From contig CAWBOS010000012.1 of NCBI GenBank assembly GCA_963790475.1, positions 1-64,000 of the forward strand: 64,000 bases of DNA. Direction: 5' to 3'. Of the stretch, positions 55,322 to 64,000 are shown in pieces. Source of the DNA: an uncultured delta proteobacterium. GTDB lineage: Bacteria; Desulfobacterota; RBG-13-43-22. The notes under the pieces are model-generated. The model saw only the letters and a program-made list of their open reading frames with translations, searched no databases and was not told where the DNA came from. Both the position numbers and the translations under genes were made by a program. Each line of letters begins with the position of its first letter. Positions within the stretch are counted from its first letter, which is position 1.

Positions 55322-56350
55322 ATGAGCTTCAATTATATTCGAGAAGTATCGACTCCTCAGGAGATCCTGGCGGCCATCCCGCTCTCTCAGGACCTGTCTT
55401 TGATCAAGAAAGCGCGGGATCAGGAGATCATGGCCGTCTTTACCAGGGAAAGCAAAAAGTTTCTGCTCATCATCGGCCCCTGTTCGGCCCACGATGAAGA
55501 TGCGGTTTGCGATTACATAACCAGGTTGGCCCGGGTGCAGGCTGAGGTCCAGGACAGGATCATCATTATCCCGCGAATCTATACCAATAAGCCCCGCACC
55601 AATGGTATGGGATACAAAGGGATGGTTCATCAGCCGGATCCGCTAAAAGCGCCTAATATTGTCGAGGGGATTCAGGCCATCAGGAGAATGCACATCCGCG
55701 CCCTCCGGGAATCAAACCTTCCCGCGGCCGACGAAATGCTCTATCCCGGAAACTACCCTTATCTCGAAGACGTCTTAAGTTATGTGGCCGTGGGGGCCCG
55801 TTCGGTGGAGAATCAGGCCCATCGTTTGACCTGCAGCGGTCTTGAAGTACCAGTGGGCATGAAAAATCCGACTTCCGGAGAACTCGAAGTGACTCTTAAT
55901 TCCATTCAGGCCTCTCAAGCCTCCCATGTATTCAACTATAATGGTTGGGAAGTCAAGACCACCGGCAATCCCCTGACCCATGCCGTACTCCGTGGTGCGG
56001 TGGATCACTCTAAACTGGCAGTCCCCAATTACCATTTCGAGGATCTGAACCTTTTTGCCAAGGCCTACCAGAAGAGGGAACTGCTCAACCCGACGATTAT
56101 CGTGGACACCAACCATGCCAATTCCAACAAAAAATTCGCCGAACAACCCCGCATCGCCAAAGAGGTCTTGCACAGTCGCCGTCACTCCACCCTGCTCAAG
56201 GACCTGGTTCGGGGCTTGATGATTGAGAGTTTTATTGAGGAAGGGTCGCAGCCGGCAACTGGCACCGTGTATGGAAAATCCATCACCGACCCCTGCCTGG
56301 GGTGGAAGGACAGCGAAAAGCTGATTCGTGATCTGGCCGGGATGTTGTAG
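55322..56350 (+). CDS. DAHP synthase, type I-alpha (AroF/G/H family)
   Basis: IGPCSAH, RIYTNKPRT, VGARS, GMKN, DTNHANS, GLMIES, YGKSITDPCLGW. Confidence 0.94.
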   Translation: MSFNYIREVSTPQEILAAIPLSQDLSLIKKARDQEIMAVFTRESKKFLLIIGPCSAHDEDAVCDYITRLARVQAEVQDRIIIIPRIYTNKPRTNGMGYKGMVHQPDPLKAPNIVEGIQAIRRMHIRALRESNLPAADEMLYPGNYPYLEDVLSYVAVGARSVENQAHRLTCSGLEVPVGMKNPTSGELEVTLNSIQASQASHVFNYNGWEVKTTGNPLTHAVLRGAVDHSKLAVPNYHFEDLNLFAKAYQKRELLNPTIIVDTNHANSNKKFAEQPRIAKEVLHSRRHSTLLKDLVRGLMIESFIEEGSQPATGTVYGKSITDPCLGWKDSEKLIRDLAGML

Positions 56351-56400
56351 GCCGAGTTTCAGGAAAGAAATTGCAGATATTGGAAGGTGCTGAATTAATC

Positions 56401-57107
56401 ATGGAAACATACGCCATGACCCACCCAGGGTTGAGAAGAAAAGAAAACCAGGATCGATATTTTATCCGGGAATTTGAAGACCAAACCGTTCTATCGGCCG
56501 TGGCTGACGGCATGGGTGGCGAGGCGGGTGGCGGATTGGCCGCCCAGACAGCCATTGAGGCCTTCAAAGATTTTAATACCAACTTGGCCAATGTTGAAGA
56601 CTCATTTGCTGCTGTCTTCCAGGTCGCGGACCGAGGATCAGGGAAGAAATCAGAAAGGGTCCCCAATTGGAAGGAATGGGTACGACCCTGACCTCGGCCT
56701 ATTTAAAAAAAGGGGAAATCCATTGGGCCCATGTAGGCGACAGCCGGCTTTATCTCTTCCGGGCCGGGGGGCTGACTCAAGTTACGGAAGACCATACCTT
56801 CGTAACTCGGCTGGTCAAAGAAGGAGCGATAACCAAAGATCAGGCCAGGGTCCATCCCCTGCAAAATATTTTAATTAACTGTCTCGGATGCAAGCCGATG
56901 ATAATGAGCTCCGGCAGATTCAAGATTCAAAATAAAGATTTGGTGCTCCTTTGCACGGATGGGCTTTATCACCAAGTAAGAGACGAGGAATTAGTATCCA
57001 TACTGATCAAAAAAATCAGCATCAAGGAGAAGCTTGAGGGCCTCCTTCAGACCGCCCTGGAGGCTGGGGGGTGGGACAACATCACCCTGGTGGGAGTAAC
57101 GATTTAA
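56401..57107 (+). CDS. Stp1/PrpC-type PP2C phosphatase; frameshift near 56632
   Basis: G..R..NQD, VADGMGG | GMGTT, HVGDSR, TEDH, LCTDGL, GGWDNIT. Confidence 0.88.
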
Positions 57108-57192
57108 TCCTAAGCCCGTATTGTTCTATAAAGGCATCTTCCGTAGGAAACTCCTGCAGAAAAAGCAAATTGGAACAGGTTCCAGTCTCCGT

Positions 57193-57320
57193 TTGAGAGT
57201 TTCATTGAGGAAGGATCCCAGCTGGCAAAAGGCACCGTGTATGGAAAATCCATCTCTGACCCCTGTTTGGGTTGGAAAGACAGCGGAAAACTCATCCGGG
57301 ATCTGGCCGGTCTGCTGTAG
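57193..57320 (+). repeat. Diverged 128-bp direct copy of the 3' end of the type I-alpha DAHP synthase gene (56223-56350)
   Basis: 20 mismatches in 128 bp by manual alignment; reads ESFIEEGSQLAKGTVYGKSISDPCLGWKDSGKLIRDLAGLL*. Confidence 0.9.
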
Positions 57321-57455
57321 CTTGGGGCGGTTTACTGTGTAAATATTGGGTAGAGCAGAGAGCTGGCGCCGGAAATTTAGGAACCCCAACCATTTCTCAA
57401 AATAAATAGGCATAGTGTCCCCGGATTGAGCGGCCCAACTCGTTATGCGTAAACC

Positions 57456-58844
57456 CTAATCTTTCTTGGGAACTTCTTTAAGTGCAGAATTAAATAATTT
57501 TAAAAAATCATCATCATTTAACTGCGTCATGTCTACGCCAACAAAGGATTCCGTACCGTTTAGGATGAAATTAGCAATATTGCCTTCTTTATTTGTAGGT
57601 GTATACCAAATTTGGTCACCTTCTTTTTGGATCAAAAGGTCGTGAAATTTTTTCCATTGATGTTTTGGTAAATGATTATTCCTAAATATTGCTGTAATCT
57701 GACGAGCTGGATCATGTACAATTACAATAGCTTTTTTTCTTTCGTCATTCATGCGAGCGAGTATCCCACGTTGTGGAAATTTATCTAAAGGTTCTTTCTG
57801 ATAATAAATAAGAGCATAGTTCCCAGGAAGCTCACGGAGAGGGAGTTGTTTCTTCTGCATCTCGAAAAACGATTGTTGCGCTTGTATCATTGCCTCGAAG
57901 AGAAAACCCATTATAAAAGATACAACTAGTGGATGCCAAACCTGTTGGAGGGCAAACAGTATCCTTCTATGAGTGAAATTACTTTGTTTGCCATTTATTT
58001 CAAGAATATTAGGTCTGAGGATCATTTCCCTAACATAAACTGCTGCTTCTGGTTCGGTAGGATCAATAAAACCATTCTGTGTTAACTTTTCAGATTTTTT
58101 GAGGTACCGATTCCATTCCTGCTCCAAGGCATCAATAGCCTTTTGATTGCTAAAATTGTCGAATGAACTTATCGAGACACATACTGACATTAACACAGCT
58201 TCAATAATAGCCCTCTTCCATTGGGCATCCAAAGATTCTGAAATAAACCCTGGTTGGCGGAATTGCGCAACATGAAGATTTCTTACAATAGTGAAAATAT
58301 GGTCAAATGCTGCGCCTCCAATAGCATCAATTTCGTCAATTTCGCGACGTATCGGTTCTATCGCCTGAATACCAGGATTATCTATATGACATTCTAAATG
58401 TTCTTGAAAGACGATATCGCTTGCAGAGTTGGCGGTACGGGTCCCATGTCCCTTGTGCTCGTCATATACTTTTTTAAAATCTGGGTTGCTACTCATCCCG
58501 CCGATACCAATGAGAACCGCGCTAACAAGTCTAGGGTTTAAGTCGGAGGGTAATTCTTCTTGAGAACCTCTGATTACATGTTCTTCGTAGGCTGGTAAGT
58601 AATCTACTGGTAAATAACAAGCTCGCAGTATTAAATCCGCAAAATAATTATCAAGGCTAGGATTTTTTCGAGTGACGAACTTGGGGATAGGTCCGGGGGA
58701 CGTGTCATTGTCCCGCAATCCTAAGAATTCACGAAGGAGATTAGACGAAGCCAAGACTATATTCTCTACTATTGAAAATCCTTCATACACATCAGGCGTG
58801 AGGTCAGCTGGTTGAATTTGTTTCCCATCCAAGCGTCTATTCAT
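57456..58844 (-). CDS. Hypothetical protein with MYG1/DHH-like motifs (putative phosphoesterase/nuclease effector)
   Basis: FVTRKNPSLDNYFA...VLIGIGG...YDEH pattern resembles the DHH/MYG1 motif order (fold call is tentative); overlaps the upstream PP2C gene by 8 bp. Confidence 0.55.
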   Translation of the reverse strand: MNRRLDGKQIQPADLTPDVYEGFSIVENIVLASSNLLREFLGLRDNDTSPGPIPKFVTRKNPSLDNYFADLILRACYLPVDYLPAYEEHVIRGSQEELPSDLNPRLVSAVLIGIGGMSSNPDFKKVYDEHKGHGTRTANSASDIVFQEHLECHIDNPGIQAIEPIRREIDEIDAIGGAAFDHIFTIVRNLHVAQFRQPGFISESLDAQWKRAIIEAVLMSVCVSISSFDNFSNQKAIDALEQEWNRYLKKSEKLTQNGFIDPTEPEAAVYVREMILRPNILEINGKQSNFTHRRILFALQQVWHPLVVSFIMGFLFEAMIQAQQSFFEMQKKQLPLRELPGNYALIYYQKEPLDKFPQRGILARMNDERKKAIVIVHDPARQITAIFRNNHLPKHQWKKFHDLLIQKEGDQIWYTPTNKEGNIANFILNGTESFVGVDMTQLNDDDFLKLFNSALKEVPKKD

Positions 58845-59706
58845 CTTTTTCTCCTTCTATATGTCCCGAGATAAGTCCCTTGGTTGTAGCCGCTTTAACG
58901 ACGGCTAGTGCAATGTCGTCCGAAAAATGGCGTAAATGCCGCTTAAAAACTGATCGACGAAATGCTTGTATCGTGGTATCTTCCCCCTTTTTATTGTGTC
59001 CGCAGGTGAATTCGTCCCGGAGGAAATCTTGAAAATCCTGTTTGCCCACCGGAGATGACAAGACGTCATTGATTCCATCACTCGCAATCCATAGGAATTT
59101 CAACGTTTCAATCTCCCCGCTAACATGGATGTCAACTTTTAGTTTCGGCGATCCATATTTCTCAAGTAATGATTGGTTAAAATATAGAGTGGGTGAGTTA
59201 TCAATGGGTGTTATACCATCGTCAATTCCGAAGCAGCCATCACCGAGGCCAAATACCCAGTACCGATTACGTACGACTGCAAGTCCCAGGATAGTAAATA
59301 GAAGTTTGTTAAGAATGAAATCACACCATTCTTTTGAAAGAAATGCCAGTCCTAAGCCTTTGCAGAACCTCTTAAAAAAAGTTATTGTCCTGCTGCCAGT
59401 AATTCGTAGGGCTTTTTCAAATTGAAGATCGTTAATATTGTCGCCATCACGCAATTCTTTTTCAAGAAAGTTCGCCCAACAATATGCCCCCAAAACAGCT
59501 CCAACTTGATTTTGTGTAAAACCAAAATCTGTAGTGCTGCATCCATCGCAGACTACTGCTACTTTCAAATTCGATGATTGGACTATGTGGCATGCGTCTT
59601 GACATCCAAGAGAAACCTCCTTGTGAAGCTTACCTTCCATAACAAAGGATCCAACAAGCAAGTTCGGACTCTCAGGAGCATATACGGAGTAGCTTGGTAT
59701 AGTCAT
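58837..59706 (-). CDS. PP2C-like phosphatase (TerY-triad type)
   Basis: G..H....GCQDA, VAVVCDGCS, GLGDG, IASDG, SDDIA. Confidence 0.85.
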   Translation of the reverse strand: MTIPSYSVYAPESPNLLVGSFVMEGKLHKEVSLGCQDACHIVQSSNLKVAVVCDGCSTTDFGFTQNQVGAVLGAYCWANFLEKELRDGDNINDLQFEKALRITGSRTITFFKRFCKGLGLAFLSKEWCDFILNKLLFTILGLAVVRNRYWVFGLGDGCFGIDDGITPIDNSPTLYFNQSLLEKYGSPKLKVDIHVSGEIETLKFLWIASDGINDVLSSPVGKQDFQDFLRDEFTCGHNKKGEDTTIQAFRRSVFKRHLRHFSDDIALAVVKAATTKGLISGHIEGEKDE

Positions 59707-59732
59707 TTAAACCTCTTTTGCTGCCTTAATTC

Positions 59733-60824
59733 TCATGCAGAATACATCATGTCTAAGAGACGAATGCGTGCTTTATCGCGTTCTAATGTTTTCTTCCTTG
59801 CTCTCTCAATCATATCGTTCCAGAGTTCCTCCCAAAATCGTCTTTGACGATCATCTTGAATCAACCTAGCCATCAGGTTATCGGCTCTTTGGGTCCGCTG
59901 GAGAGCTTCTTCCCTTGGGAAATATGAATCCAACATGTCGACCAAAGGGACACGACCTGTTGGGTCTGATGAAAATATTTTTTTAAAATAAGCTTTAAGC
60001 TTAGGTTTACTCTCAAGCCATTTAGGGTTCCTTATATCAAACTTTGGGGGCTGGACCATAGGATCAAGCAATACTGCAGAATAATTATATGATCTAAATA
60101 CGTAAGGATCTTTGCGATATTTCGGGTGAATTCCTGCCCAAGGTGATACACCCATAAAGAGCTCAAAGGCGATGACAGCTAAAGCCCACCAATCGGTCAG
60201 AGCTGAAAACTCTTCATTAGGGCCAACTGCGTCTGGAACGCGATCCCTGATGCGCGGATCGAGATATTGAATCGTGAAACTTTCACCTGGATAATTAGGA
60301 ATTGAACAGGAGTCAAAATCGATTAAATATGGTCTAAGGTTTGAAACAAGGATATTTTGAGGTTTAAGATCGCACATGAAGACACGATTAACGTGCAGGC
60401 TTCCCAAAGCGTCGTTTATCTCATATATGAAATTGGCAATCATCTGATCAAATAGGGGTTCTTCGTTAGGAGCAATTGAAGGCTTCCAACTCATGGAATT
60501 AATCGGTTTCGCATCAGGTAGGTACTTCATAATAAAGCCAACAGCTTGGTTAGTTGGTAACCCTTCAAGGAACACCATCTGCAGCGGAGCCACGACCAGT
60601 TCGTGGAAATTCCTCTTCTGTCCGCAAAGAGTACTCAGTTTCTCACTCATTGAGGAATTAATGGGATAGTCGGGGTACATCTTGACGGCAAACTGATTAT
60701 TCAACTTAAAAACTTCGCCATCCTTACCTCCATCTATGTAATTTGAATTGGTGAGCGTGTAACGCTGTCCGTCAGCGTCAAAAATGGTGATGCCATCGAA
60801 TTTGGATTGGTAAGTAATGCTCAT
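59733..60824 (-). CDS. Hanks-type Ser/Thr protein kinase
   Basis: GGKDGEV, AVKMY, H....CDLKPQNILV, IDFDS, TDWWALAV..FEL..G..P. Confidence 0.9.
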   Translation of the reverse strand: MSITYQSKFDGITIFDADGQRYTLTNSNYIDGGKDGEVFKLNNQFAVKMYPDYPINSSMSEKLSTLCGQKRNFHELVVAPLQMVFLEGLPTNQAVGFIMKYLPDAKPINSMSWKPSIAPNEEPLFDQMIANFIYEINDALGSLHVNRVFMCDLKPQNILVSNLRPYLIDFDSCSIPNYPGESFTIQYLDPRIRDRVPDAVGPNEEFSALTDWWALAVIAFELFMGVSPWAGIHPKYRKDPYVFRSYNYSAVLLDPMVQPPKFDIRNPKWLESKPKLKAYFKKIFSSDPTGRVPLVDMLDSYFPREEALQRTQRADNLMARLIQDDRQRRFWEELWNDMIERARKKTLERDKARIRLLDMMYSA

Positions 60825-61564
60825 TGTCTATCCTTAATTACATGACTAGAGATCAAATCCATTGCCTTGCGAATTTCTTTAGGGTCGGCGTTTCCTTCGA
60901 TGACGTCCTCAATACCGATTGATTTACCTATCGCTTTAAAATCAAAATCGCCAAGCCCAACAAGAGAGATTCGATGAATAATGCCAGTTTCCAATACGAA
61001 CTCAATGACATTTCTCAATGTTTCTGCTCTTGTCTTGCTATGTTCGTCTTTTCCATCTGTAATTACCGCGACATGAGCCATTACTTGTTGACCCAATTCC
61101 TCCGCTCCGAGTAGTATTGGTGATAACATCGCCAGTGCATGCACAATGGTATCGTATAATGCGGTTCCCCCGTCAGGAACATAGTTCTGGTCATCAAGAA
61201 GTCTAACCTTGGGATGAGCCTGGCGGATGTTGGAAGGATCTCGAAATGGGGTCACATCTTGAAAGTACGGATCCTGGACTTCATGGTTGAAAAGAATTTG
61301 ACCAAAATAAATATTAAGGGCAGAGCTTGCGCCCAACAATGAATTAATGAGGTGGTGTTGCCCATCGATCATTCCAGCCTTAAGAGGTACCATTGACCCA
61401 GATCTATCCAACAGTAACACTAAGGGACGTACGGACACGCCTTCAAGGGGTTGAATATCTTGGGCCTTATCCCGGGCCAGTGTTTGGATAATTTCCGCTA
61501 TCTCTGGCTTCATCACCCCTAAAGATACTAATTGATCGAGCGCTTGTTTTTCTGAAACCGACAT
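60821..61564 (-). CDS. vWA-domain protein (TerY-like)
   Basis: MIDAS motif LLLDRSGSM...GGTALYD...ITDG; stop overlaps the kinase start (ATGA). Confidence 0.88.
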   Translation of the reverse strand: MSVSEKQALDQLVSLGVMKPEIAEIIQTLARDKAQDIQPLEGVSVRPLVLLLDRSGSMVPLKAGMIDGQHHLINSLLGASSALNIYFGQILFNHEVQDPYFQDVTPFRDPSNIRQAHPKVRLLDDQNYVPDGGTALYDTIVHALAMLSPILLGAEELGQQVMAHVAVITDGKDEHSKTRAETLRNVIEFVLETGIIHRISLVGLGDFDFKAIGKSIGIEDVIEGNADPKEIRKAMDLISSHVIKDRQ

Positions 61565-61574
61565 ATCTTCCTCC

Positions 61575-63473
61575 TTACAGCGTAAATCTTTCGTATCCTT
61601 TGCCTATAATATATCCATTCGCCGATTCTATCAGCCAATCCTCAGAGCCAAATCCATAAAATGTGGATAGGATCTTATTAGTTTCGGTATTACGGATTTC
61701 TATTTTTCTGTCAAAATCTGCAATTGCTAAAAAGTTATCTCCAATGAGTGTCAGGGATAGAGGCTCGTTTGATAGAGATTCTTGATAACAAATTATTGGA
61801 AAAATAATGTCTCGGACGATAAGTGTATTATCCTCTAGACACAACCAAATTTTTCTGGTAGCTTCGTGGTAAATGGCGCAAACAATACCTTTTGCAAATG
61901 AAATGTTGTTCAGTAATCGACCTTCTGTGCATCGGCTAATGACCAATAAACCATCTTCACCGGAAGATATATAGGCAGGCCGCGTTGGCAATCCAATCAG
62001 GGTGGAAACCGGACCACGGTGATCATTTCTTGAATTAATAAGTTTTTTGGATGCTATTTCCCAAACAAATGTCTTACCCAATTTGCTACCAGCGATGACA
62101 TAACGATTGCTATCACAAAATGATCCTGTTGTAAGATTTTCATTGCAGTTGAATCTTCGTACCAGTTCCCCATTATCTGTCCGTCTAATCTGTAAAAATC
62201 CTTCCAATGTCACTATAAGCAGAAGATTCCCATTTGTCGAAAACTGAACCTGTATCAGATTTGGATATGAATTGAATTCTATTAGGTTATATGTTCCAAC
62301 TGAATCTATATGCCAGCATTCGATTCCCTGAGATAGACCAAGGAGAAGTTCCCATCCTTTTGATGTTTTCCGCATCGCACTCGAAATGAAGTATCCATCG
62401 GTGGTGCGCGGTGTGATAGCAATATGCTGTGACAATTCATTTATTGCCCAGAGATGTACCGTTTGGTTTGCATGAAGTGTTGCCAGCCAATATCCGTCAG
62501 GCGAAGCGCAGATAGTGGGTGCGTAAGATGCCTCTTTTAGTAGACCAGTTAGGTCAAGCCGTATTGGTGTTGATTTTTGTTTTTGAACCTGATCGATTTG
62601 TTCATTTTGTTTTAATGAAATGCTTTCGGAGGTTTTATAACTAGCATACTTTTTGCGAATCCTTTCTGCCTGCTCTGATGTGATAGTGTTGAACCCGGTA
62701 CTTACCCGTATCCCTTCATTAGTCGCACCTTTAATGGTTTGTTTGATTTCGATATTTAATTCCTCTGCTAACTCATAAATTCTTATCTTTTCCCGATGTT
62801 TAATCGACTGAGGTGATTTAGGTCCTGTTAATAAAGGTTTTGATTTTGACCCTTGATCGCTAGTTAAGGGTGGAGTTCTTCTTGAATGATGTATCTTTTT
62901 AATATAATTTTGTTGATCTTGCTGTATCTTGAGATCCCTTCGAAATTTATTTTTAAGATTGATACCTACAGGAAGTTTTCTTGGTTTACCAATTTTGGGC
63001 TTTTTTATTAGAGGTTGTTCCGTTAGTTTCCGATAAAGATCTTTATAGCCTGTATTGCTGTTTAAATCGTAGTACTGAAAAGGTTTAAGAGGTCTGGGAA
63101 CAAATTTCGTATTATTTGGATCAAAAATAATTGGAATAAACTTTTCATTTATTGAATCATTATCGTAGATTTCTTGGTAGGTTAGTAATGATTCAAAACG
63201 ACCACCTTTCCCCTTTCCAGGAGTTTCATCACCTCCGGCACGTTTATCGTATGTTTCTGTGCAAATCACCAAAACATAGTCAGAATTACGGATTTGTTGC
63301 TCCATCCACCGTGGCCACCCCTGTCGAGGAGATTCCTCATATTGATCCAGATTACAATCAAGACCGTCTCGACAGAGACGATCAGCAAGTGCAAGGACGC
63401 TTCTATCGTGCTCTTTGGACTCATGACAGTAACTTATAAAGACCTTCAAATGTTTCTCCAAATTAGTCACCAT
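61575..63473 (-). CDS. SEFIR/TIR - IF2_N-like helix-turn-helix - WD40 propeller protein
   Basis: KVFISYCH...LADRL...DQY...GWPRWM...VLVICT...GKGGRFE...KFIP (SEFIR); KIRIYELAEEL...TITSEQAERI (IF2 N-terminal-like); repeated WD40-like strands (SPDGYWLAT, FSTNG, VWEI, SSGEDG). Confidence 0.85.
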   Translation of the reverse strand: MVTNLEKHLKVFISYCHESKEHDRSVLALADRLCRDGLDCNLDQYEESPRQGWPRWMEQQIRNSDYVLVICTETYDKRAGGDETPGKGKGGRFESLLTYQEIYDNDSINEKFIPIIFDPNNTKFVPRPLKPFQYYDLNSNTGYKDLYRKLTEQPLIKKPKIGKPRKLPVGINLKNKFRRDLKIQQDQQNYIKKIHHSRRTPPLTSDQGSKSKPLLTGPKSPQSIKHREKIRIYELAEELNIEIKQTIKGATNEGIRVSTGFNTITSEQAERIRKKYASYKTSESISLKQNEQIDQVQKQKSTPIRLDLTGLLKEASYAPTICASPDGYWLATLHANQTVHLWAINELSQHIAITPRTTDGYFISSAMRKTSKGWELLLGLSQGIECWHIDSVGTYNLIEFNSYPNLIQVQFSTNGNLLLIVTLEGFLQIRRTDNGELVRRFNCNENLTTGSFCDSNRYVIAGSKLGKTFVWEIASKKLINSRNDHRGPVSTLIGLPTRPAYISSGEDGLLVISRCTEGRLLNNISFAKGIVCAIYHEATRKIWLCLEDNTLIVRDIIFPIICYQESLSNEPLSLTLIGDNFLAIADFDRKIEIRNTETNKILSTFYGFGSEDWLIESANGYIIGKGYERFTL

Positions 63474-63586
63474 CGAAACCCCGCATTTATAAATATTTTA
63501 TAGAGATCGAATTCAGGGAATTCAGGGGACATATTACTTATTTTTCAATGCCTTCGGCATGAACGTCCTGCTTTACATTTTTGCTA

Positions 63587-64000
63587 TCATTCTTTCATGG
63601 AATGGACCGCATCAAGATATGCCCGTCCAGCAGGTAGTATTTCATATCGAACTTTGTCGCCCTTGGCGTTTATCCGCCTAGCCAACTCCGGGAAATCCTT
63701 TAGAACCCAATTCACATGTCTGGCACTAATCCGTTCTACATGTTCCGCGTCATTGACGGGAACATCCCGTTCAGTCAGTTTGGCGATGTCAGGACACGCT
63801 GCTGGTCCAGAGATTTGATCCAATGCTCGCAGACATCTGAACATACGCGCCTCTTGGAGAACTTTTCGCTTAAGTTTTATGTTTGATACTCCGGGGAGCT
63901 TACTAAACGCATCCCCCAATAATGCATTTATCTGAGTATGGTAGTCTTCAATCGTTCCCTCATTCTCTATCTTGATATCTGCCAAATCTTGTGCAACCGG
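63587..64000 (-). CDS. 5'-partial gene: C-terminus of a P-loop nucleotide-kinase-like domain plus a probable winged helix
   Basis: Frame is open to the window edge; ADIKIENEGTIEDY resembles dephospho-CoA/NMP-kinase C-termini; RYEILPAGRAYL resembles a wHTH wing. Confidence 0.5.
   Translation of the reverse strand, partial: PVAQDLADIKIENEGTIEDYHTQINALLGDAFSKLPGVSNIKLKRKVLQEARMFRCLRALDQISGPAACPDIAKLTERDVPVNDAEHVERISARHVNWVLKDFPELARRINAKGDKVRYEILPAGRAYLDAVHSMKE

Follow-up and report, generated by a model that had tools for sequence, protein, structure and literature searches.

The SEFIR–IF2_N–WD40 gene

The window analyzed here is the whole of a 64,000-nucleotide stretch (C12:1-64000, contig CAWBOS010000012.1) from the 6.34-Mb, 20-contig genome of an uncultured delta proteobacterium (GenBank assembly GCA_963790475.1; Desulfobacterota, RBG-13-43-22). 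Close to its end, on the minus strand, lies a gene (61575..63473) assigned from the open reading frame (ORF) list, Pfam, and PADLOC. This gene encodes a 632-residue protein, P0001, in which a small domain of translation initiation factor 2 (IF2), called IF2_N, is set between a SEFIR head and a WD40-type tail. Here, we focus on the identity of that domain, on the other proteins that carry it, and on what it could do in a protein of this kind.

The SEFIR domain covers residues 10-140 (63054..63446; all parts of the protein are on the minus strand) and is presumed to be an NAD+-consuming effector head. Pfam SEFIR scores 63.2 bits on it versus 59.9 bits for TIR_2, and the PADLOC bSEFIR model matches P0001 with an E-value of 1.2e-57. 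Among PDB sequences, phmmer pairs P0001 with the Bacillus cereus SEFIR structure 5y8e (E 2.7e-13), and the protein's Glu94 is kept in 29 of the 30 rows of a SEFIR alignment (A3). By analogy with the Bacillus SEFIR system, the head would be an NADase. The bSEFIR match spans residues 6-276. The idea that the bSEFIR hidden Markov model (HMM) itself covers IF2_N was rejected: at E ≤ 1, PADLOC has no model that matches either residues 151-303 or the IF2_N segment by itself.

Beyond the head lies a basic, proline- and lysine-rich linker (residues 151-227; 62793..63023), in which 20 of the 77 residues are lysine or arginine versus 4 that are aspartate or glutamate, for a net charge of +16. Such a composition would be in keeping with disorder and with nucleic-acid binding. 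The IF2_N domain, of the N1 type, follows at residues 228-276 (62646..62792; assigned from Pfam, a genome search, and a fold model). From about residue 304 to residue 632 (61578..62564), the chain forms a WD40-type beta-propeller, presumed to be a sensor or assembly platform. Specifically, over about residues 320-630, many WD40-type Pfam families match, each below its own cut-off, and WDR5 is the PDB sequence that phmmer matches to the propeller (E 2e-9).

Identity and fold of the IF2_N domain

An earlier note, made from the letters alone, had described an IF2_N-like stretch between SEFIR and WD40 parts at 62640-62800, and had named an HMM search and structure prediction as ways to check it. 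The stretch is where the note placed it. The peptide that it quoted is found exactly at residues 229-276, with SEFIR before it and WD40 after it, and the domain falls inside that interval. Both checks bear out the assignment. Specifically, Pfam IF2_N (PF04760) aligns positions 2-50 of its 53-position profile to residues 228-276 and scores 33.2 bits (E 4.4e-8), which exceeds the curated gathering cut-off (25.3 bits). In a six-frame search of the host genome with IF2_N, the P0001 site scores 37.8 bits (E 1.1e-8). Three sites in that genome exceed the cut-off: the one in P0001 and two in the true IF2, on contig C15 (59.5 and 58.8 bits).

The fold was modeled with AlphaFold2 from residues 215-290 and a 42-row alignment (A2). 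The model has a mean predicted local distance difference test score (pLDDT) of 77.5, 10-residue blocks over model residues 11-60 average 80-92, and its elements run strand-helix-helix-strand-helix. Foldseek against the PDB returns as its first match residues 1-363 of Thermus thermophilus IF2 (4b43; 25% identity; root-mean-square deviation (rmsd) 1.7 over 56 columns; E 6.3e-3), and none of its matches is as good as E 1e-3. The N2 subdomain of ribosome-bound Pseudomonas aeruginosa IF2 (7uiu) is also matched, with an rmsd of 1.3 over 48 columns. Thermus IF2 comes first in VIA-align too (4b3x_A, residues 1-65; Z 8.6), and the next row stands at Z 6.6. The VIA-align rows after IF2 are winged-helix domains that bind DNA, namely those of pSK1 Par (Z 6.6), of RacA (Z 5.2), and of regulators of the MerR type (Z 3-4). 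By profile and by predicted fold, residues 228-276 are a genuine IF2_N domain.

P0001 carries this domain but, judged by its Pfam families, is not an IF2 protein, because no GTP_EFTU, IF-2, or EF-G_D2 family is matched at E ≤ 1. Nor does the domain appear to be a recent copy of the host's own IF2. In a small domain alignment, it is 35% identical to host IF2 N1 (17/48) and 23% identical to host N2 (11/48), versus 50-54% to the N1 of true IF2 proteins from another lineage (P0150, P0147). Because of these values, the alignment identifies the domain as N1-type but not as a recent host copy. Copies outside IF2 (in P0122, P0199, and a protein from locus L066, all described below) are 44-50% identical to it.

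IF2_N as a mobile module

To survey the domain, residues 215-290 were searched with phmmer against 1.84 billion representatives at E ≤ 1e-3. A word-index search with residues 222-282 had been uninformative, returning the query only and missing the full-length relative P0002, and the full phmmer search was used instead. It returned 100 proteins, most of which, from their sequences, are IF2 N-termini of one lineage; P0147 and P0150 are among the complete IF2 proteins. A Pfam scan then covered 30 of the 100 matches, with the longer ones chosen. Four of the 30 are true IF2, 12 carry IF2_N only, one has Calx-beta without IF2_N, and 13 join IF2_N to other domains.

The partners in these fusions are diverse. 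Kinases include P0122 (Pkinase with two IF2_N copies) and P0135 and P0194 (Pkinase plus S1). The C-terminal domain of RNA polymerase alpha (alpha-CTD) occurs in P0140 (with RRM), P0169 (with an IF1-like domain), and P0218. Other fusions join IF2_N to four S1 domains (P0164), TPR (P0171), TIR_2 (P0199), or GAF plus Mrr_cat (P0210), and still others consist of IF2_N repeats alone. A protein combining IF2_N with FGE-sulfatase also appears in a published survey of diversity-generating retroelement targets (PMC5758913). On this evidence, IF2_N is a mobile domain whose other partners are mostly RNA- or RNA polymerase-binding modules and kinases.

We note a further feature of four of these proteins. 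P0140, P0218, P0210, and P0169 have a common conserved N-terminal region, for which the matches are sub-threshold (CAP12-PCTIR_TIR, E 0.012, in P0210; Nuc_deoxyrib_tr, E 0.23, in P0218). Should that region prove to be TIR-like, the order of domains would run from it through alpha-CTD and IF2_N to RRM.

Two members of the survey bear on the combination of IF2_N with TIR-superfamily heads. First, the TIR of P0199 is ThsB-like (PADLOC, E 2.6e-50). Over its first 60 residues, P0199 has, by manual count, only 3 differences from IF2 N-termini such as that of P0165. It is a singleton cluster on one contig, and the near-identity points to one of two origins, a chimeric contig or capture of the 5' end of infB in the very recent past. 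Second, metagenome locus L066 (L066:9368-11011) encodes a 342-residue protein that has IF2_N at its N-terminus and also matches CAP12/Pycsar-TIR, at a sub-threshold 21.7 bits (cut-off 24.7). Its gene begins 4 nucleotides after a SLATT_2 gene, in an island (L066:6092-17465) of TIR_2, SLATT_2, TPR-S/trypsin-like peptidase, EEP nuclease, metallophosphatase, and CHAT-TPR-S genes. The earlier note had proposed a survey of TIR or SEFIR proteins that contain IF2_N, and such architectures do recur: at least three proteins lie above the Pfam cut-offs (P0001, P0002, and P0199), and the L066 protein lies below.

A putative five-gene operon

The SEFIR gene is followed on the same strand by four genes. Because all share one strand and are separated by overlaps or short gaps, the arrangement suggests a five-gene operon with the SEFIR gene first. 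The second gene (60821..61564, minus strand), 10 nucleotides after the stop of gene 1, encodes a 247-residue vWA-domain protein, assigned from a weak Pfam VWA match and from phrog_7371 (E 4.3e-9); a D-x-S-x-S motif (LLLDRSGSM) is present in its translation. The third (59733..60824, minus strand), which overlaps the vWA gene by 4 nucleotides, encodes a 363-residue Ser/Thr protein kinase (Pfam Pkinase, 61.2 bits) with weak PADLOC matches to the kinase models mad6, MkoA, and PD-T4-6. After a 26-nucleotide gap comes the gene for a 289-residue PP2C-type phosphatase (58837..59706, minus strand; PP2C_2, 36.2 bits versus a cut-off of 24). The fifth gene (57456..58844, minus strand) overlaps the PP2C gene by 8 nucleotides and encodes a 462-residue protein, assigned by structure match to a DHH/DHHA1-like fold.

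This fifth protein matches no Pfam, NCBIfam, or PADLOC family. Its AlphaFold2 model has a pLDDT of 91.8 and a predicted template modeling score (pTM) of 0.91. All 50 VIA matches listed for the model belong to the DHH family, among them PggH (7d62_A; Z 12.5 over 265 residues), PAP phosphatase (Z 11.3), and RecJ (Z 11.0), and the best Foldseek E-value is 2.6e-5. The predicted two-domain fold is that of DHH/DHHA1 phosphoesterases. The protein differs from them in lacking a sequence-family match and the canonical D-H-H motif: the invariant triplet of its family is D128-E129-H130. The family comprises 57 proteins including the query, one of which (P0276) carries PP2C_2, and it was found in none of the 400 other genomes of our phylum sample. 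A search of the ESM Atlas with the fifth protein gave unnamed clusters and low-share leads only. One family member, P0222, is 81% identical to the fifth protein; it has the same set of sources as P0002 and lies on a different contig. P0222 and P0002 may, at a guess, come from the same genome. A by-product of this analysis is a conserved, unannotated protein family with a predicted DHH fold.

The operon lies in DNA of low G+C content, 0.40-0.42 at 58-64 kb versus 0.46-0.57 in most of the window. The operon's downstream neighbors are shikimate-pathway (aromatic amino-acid) genes, and upstream, continuing past the window end, come a Ham1-like/P-loop ORF and genes of GHMP-kinase-like and methylase-like type. 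Promoter and terminator scans of 56300-64000 returned shuffled-level counts (17 versus 17.3 expected and 6 versus 7.1 expected, respectively). A sequencing-run index lists one DNA run, which shares 0.36 of the words, and no RNA run.

Two sets of neighbors deserve mention in their own right. The upstream ORF, of about 534 residues, runs from 63587..64000 on to C12:65188 (L075:1-1188) and combines a Ham1-like (non-canonical NTP pyrophosphatase) domain with a P-loop kinase-like part (AAA_17/18). Past it, at L075:1185-4226 on the minus strand, are a GHMP-kinase-like gene, a gene for a 282-residue protein, and a gene that weakly matches N6_N4 DNA methylase. The Ham1-like ORF and these neighbors may be a separate nucleotide-modification or defense module. 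On the other side, 56371..57107 on the plus strand holds overlapping short ORFs, one of which (146 residues; 56667..57107) matches PP2C (PF00481, 39.6 bits) over part of the profile only. Together they may represent a second PP2C gene, broken or frameshifted, that lies immediately beyond the operon.

A relative with an exchanged head

Homologs of P0001 are numerous (705 proteins at E ≤ 1e-3), and almost all share the SEFIR head only. The tails on these heads include sigma-70, cold-shock, STAND/TPR, PNP, FGE-sulfatase, and WD40 modules. Among the best 120 of the 705, PF04760 occurs in P0001 and P0002 only. A group of homologs with heads 45-74% identical (P0003, P0004, P0017, P0054, P0005, P0023, and P0028) is fused to sigma-70 region 2/4 or cold-shock domains, and alignment A3 gives this group a common short conserved segment directly after SEFIR.

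P0002, a 593-residue protein, is the sole full-length relative found (E 6.1e-115), and it aligns over 99% of the length. Conservation between the two proteins differs sharply from part to part. Identity is 27% in the heads (34/124 aligned), 24% and 23% in the linkers (the former over 46 aligned residues of the residue 151-227 linker), 71% in IF2_N (35/49), and 47% in the WD40 part (156/329). The head of P0002 matches the PADLOC ThsB TIR model (E 2.3e-21), with just E 0.0028 for bSEFIR. At the P0002 locus, L058, the next ORF is 91% identical (112/123) to the N-terminal 123 residues of the vWA protein. DNA identity between the window and L058 follows the same course: 83% at the vWA start, 74.5% in IF2_N (the best-kept stretch inside gene 1), and 64% in WD40, with the heads unalignable. 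These two loci suggest that the head was exchanged, SEFIR versus ThsB-like TIR, while IF2_N was kept and the downstream block stayed constant.

A further 561 bases of the L058 contig follow the P0002 gene, and the last 120 of them, past L058 position 12157, no longer resemble the window. The vWA ORF there (L058:11796-12277) stops after 122 codons. The gene may be truncated or interrupted by an insertion, or the assembly may be broken at this point.

The combination is rare. The IF2_N plus WD40 part was not found in 13 genomes of the same genus or in 7 others of the same family, and elsewhere in the phylum it has one weak, WD40-only match. Across a 401-genome phylum sample, the host is the only genome with three IF2_N sites (E ≤ 1e-5); the 400 others have 0-2. 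A genome-collection scan with alignment A1 found five loci, all with the SEFIR part only and none with the IF2_N plus WD40 module. A metagenome scan found 62 loci, of which 47 match in the SEFIR region only, one is the P0002 locus, and 14 match in the IF2_N part only. The IF2_N-only loci that were inspected fit IF2 N-termini, except L066 and a 67-residue stand-alone IF2_N ORF in L064. The locus is an accessory, low-G+C island.

What the domain could do

Two published partners of IF2 N domains indicate where such a module might dock. In Escherichia coli, IF2 N1 (residues 1-50 plus the following strands) binds the KH2/AR1 region of NusA, as reported from pull-downs, in-cell crosslinks, and single-molecule tracking (PMC12297416). 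In P. aeruginosa, IF2 N2 sits on helix h16 of 16S rRNA at the shoulder of the 30S subunit, with its tail in the minor groove (PMC9192638). The host NusA (462 residues; L076:2821-4209) is encoded upstream of infB, as usual. A complex prediction of host NusA residues 285-462 with the IF2_N segment scored 0.45 (runs 0.45, 0.35, and 0.47), and the best of three controls scored 0.00. The runs have 77% or more of their contacts in common, at a partner pLDDT of 67 or higher. Of 80 solved complexes, 58 reached the mark used for such predictions, as did 2 of 110 mismatched pairs. Both of those mismatches scored 0.60 or below, a range in which only 7 of the 80 solved complexes passed. The prediction, a weak pass, raises the odds of NusA docking a little and proves nothing taken alone.

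The explanation that we favor, at somewhat short of an even chance, is that a mobile, N1-type IF2_N serves as a docking adaptor in a SEFIR/WD40 effector held under a phospho-switch. The notion is that IF2_N was recruited into a modular conflict or defense protein of three parts: a swappable TIR-superfamily effector head, IF2_N mid-protein between low-complexity linkers, and a WD40 propeller tail. IF2_N and its basic flank would act as an address, docking the protein on NusA of elongating RNA polymerase, on the 30S subunit or RNA, or on both, as the N domains of IF2 itself do. The WD40 part would sense at the transcription–translation apparatus. When infection or stress perturbs that machinery, the SEFIR head would be released to consume NAD+, and the kinase/phosphatase/vWA triad would set or reset the switch. 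The analysis establishes the identity and modeled fold of the domain, the architecture of the protein, the layout of the operon, the exchange of heads around a conserved IF2_N, the mobility of the domain, and how rare the locus is; which partner IF2_N binds, an NADase activity of the head, what the triad does, and any part in defense are putative. The earlier note had suggested a tether to ribosomes or RNA. That suggestion stands as plausible, given the NusA and h16 partners of domains of this type, the fusions to S1, RRM, IF1-like, and alpha-CTD modules, and the basic flank; the NusA prediction adds weak support.

A wider version strikes us as doubtful but worth stating. In it, N1-type IF2_N would be a general address tag. 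Elongating RNA polymerase, with its NusA, is where a nascent transcript receives its first ribosome, and the tag would deliver to that NusA RNA-binding modules, Ser/Thr kinases, and immune effectors of the SEFIR, TIR, and Mrr nuclease kinds. The system described here would then survey coupled transcription–translation for phage takeover, and would kill or arrest the cell by NAD+ depletion under the vWA/kinase/PP2C switch.

Several points weigh against the adaptor explanation. The IF2 N-terminus and the NusA C-terminus are both, according to PMC12297416, not well conserved across bacteria. The NusA prediction is a weak pass, of a class that by the tool's own account contains more errors than correct calls, except where the guess had been a likely one to begin with. 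The winged-helix DNA-binding domains that follow IF2 as structural neighbors leave room for direct DNA binding. The conservation of IF2_N between the two loci fits binding to the near-identical downstream vWA and kinase proteins equally well, and the case for the head swap is built on two sequences, with one full-length relative. With respect to the operon, the Pfam VWA score of the second protein is 15.1 bits, below the cut-off of 23.8, and the vWA, PP2C, and fifth proteins match no PADLOC model at E ≤ 0.1. Finally, we infer a role in defense from domain content only.

The main rival places the partner of IF2_N inside the system. Specifically, the domain would be a docking handle by which the downstream vWA protein, the kinase/PP2C pair, or both hold, phosphorylate, or release the head-bearing first protein, with no link to translation. 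A conserved interface and its partner would leave the pattern seen here, in which IF2_N is the best-kept part of gene 1 (71% versus 47% and 27%) and the next gene is 91% identical. The domain's closest relative, P0002 aside, is the Ser/Thr kinase P0122 with its two IF2_N copies (E 3.1e-12), and the kinases P0135 and P0194 also carry IF2_N, a link of the Rosetta-stone type. However, P0122 and the operon kinase are distant (29% identity over 126 residues), many IF2_N fusions (S1, RRM, alpha-CTD, TPR, Mrr, TIR) have no kinase domain in the same protein, and the L066 neighborhood lacks the triad. We consider internal docking unlikely, if serious enough to be kept in view.

The earlier note had also raised the idea of an integrated decoy, in which IF2_N mimics the N domain of IF2 and a phage factor aimed at IF2, or at the contact between IF2 and NusA, triggers the immune protein. 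An effector head joined to a small foreign domain and a repeat sensor does recall integrated-decoy immune receptors. P0199, from another lineage, differs at only 3 of 60 positions from IF2 N-termini, and close mimicry therefore occurs, but this protein is a singleton on one contig and possibly a chimeric assembly. One would expect a bait to keep pace with the host protein. The P0001 domain is only 35% identical to host N1, below its 50-54% identity to N1 of another lineage, and 23% identical to host N2; because of the low identity to host N1, a decoy of the host's own IF2 is unlikely. Fusion partners of IF2_N also include kinases and S1, RRM, and alpha-CTD modules, none of which is an immune receptor. 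In PHROGs, nothing matches the domain at E ≤ 0.01, and the available parts of the literature consulted describe no phage factor that targets IF2 N1. For P0001, the decoy idea is poorly supported, and we regard it as improbable.

We regard as quite improbable the proposal that the domain is a plain winged-helix binder of DNA, foreign or from its own promoter, acting independently of the translation and transcription machinery. In its favor, the folds nearest to the domain after IF2 are those of pSK1 Par (Z 6.6; rmsd 2.1 over 50), RacA (Z 5.2), and regulators of the MerR family, a strongly basic linker lies on the domain's flank, and an Mrr-type nuclease domain is among the fusion partners (P0210). 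Against this, IF2 itself is the best match by both aligners, the domain is 50-54% identical to true IF2 N1, the commonest nucleic-acid fusion partners bind RNA (S1, RRM, IF1-like), and no report of IF2_N binding DNA was met in the literature consulted.

That the locus is instead a stress or developmental signaling module, in which the phospho-switch and a TIR-family enzyme modulate the cell's own translation or transcription and do not act in defense, is very improbable: aromatic amino-acid biosynthesis genes do lie on one flank, and no phage, integrase, or restriction gene is adjacent in the parts scanned, but the PADLOC bSEFIR match (E 1.2e-57), the published enrichment of SEFIR proteins in defense islands and their protection against phage (10.1101/2022.05.11.491447), the accessory low-G+C island that is missing from the relatives searched, and a SEFIR/ThsB-like TIR head swap that is presumably typical of conflict systems all argue for defense.

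Significance

Earlier work on the IF2 N domain concerned IF2 itself, and its NusA partner was reported only in 2025. The presence of the same small domain in TIR-superfamily immune proteins, in kinases, and in RNA- or RNA polymerase-binding proteins points to a reusable docking function. If the adaptor explanation is correct, the site at which transcription and translation meet may be monitored by bacterial immune and signaling systems. The analysis also defines a compact, putative system of five genes whose effector head is exchangeable between SEFIR and TIR, and this system is directly testable in a laboratory host. Our literature searches found no paper linking IF2_N with SEFIR or TIR; the supplementary tables of SEFIR, conflict-system, and CoCoNuT papers may list such architectures.

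Comparison with known systems

IF2 N-terminal domains (N1 of E. coli IF2 and N2 or N/G1 of the P. aeruginosa and T. thermophilus factors) are the closest counterparts of the domain itself. The P0001 copy shares with them PF04760 membership, the small strand-helix-helix-strand-helix fold predicted for it, and suspension on long, low-complexity linkers (described for IF2 in PMC12297416). It differs from them in being flanked in the chain by SEFIR and WD40.

For the head, the comparison is with the bSEFIR system of Bacillus sp. NIO-1130 (PADLOC PDLC03957; Millman et al.), a single-gene system for defense, which uses up NAD+ by means of an N-terminal SEFIR domain (bioRxiv 10.1101/2024.02.11.579819; 10.1101/2022.05.11.491447). 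P0001 resembles it in an N-terminal SEFIR domain that scores above TIR, which is that system's authors' criterion, in the HMM match, and in Glu94. However, bSEFIR is described as a single protein, whereas the P0001 gene heads a putative five-gene operon, and the C-terminal part of P0001 is a different one.

The three genes that follow resemble the TerY-P triad of vWA, PP2C, and Ser/Thr kinase, with the same gene types adjacent on one strand and joined by overlaps or short gaps. That triad is a presumed phosphorylation switch attached to other conflict systems, and it can defend alone (PMC11090510, citing Anantharaman et al. 2012 and Gao et al. 2020); the kinase–PP2C–vWA theme is also described by Kaur et al. 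2020 (PMC7159879). The published TerY-P kinase carries, as a C-terminal fusion, either a zinc ribbon or an OB fold (PMC11090510), whereas the kinase here has neither (Pfam, E ≤ 1), and no family match in its C-terminal 60 residues reaches its Pfam cut-off. PADLOC matches none of the three proteins here except the kinase, which meets only other kinase models. In addition, the triad is here joined to a TIR-superfamily/IF2_N/WD40 protein and to a DHH-fold protein, a combination without mention in the available parts of PMC11090510 and PMC7159879, the latter of which names IF2 in its reference list only.

Finally, the system can be set beside Thoeris and beside conflict proteins from multicellular bacteria that combine TIR with WD40 or TPR (Kaur et al. 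2020, PMC7159879). The sister locus shares a ThsB-like head with the TIR of Thoeris, and both loci share with the conflict proteins the order of a TIR-family head followed by a repeat-type sensor. The differences are that no ThsA-type partner is present here and that IF2_N sits between the head and the sensor.

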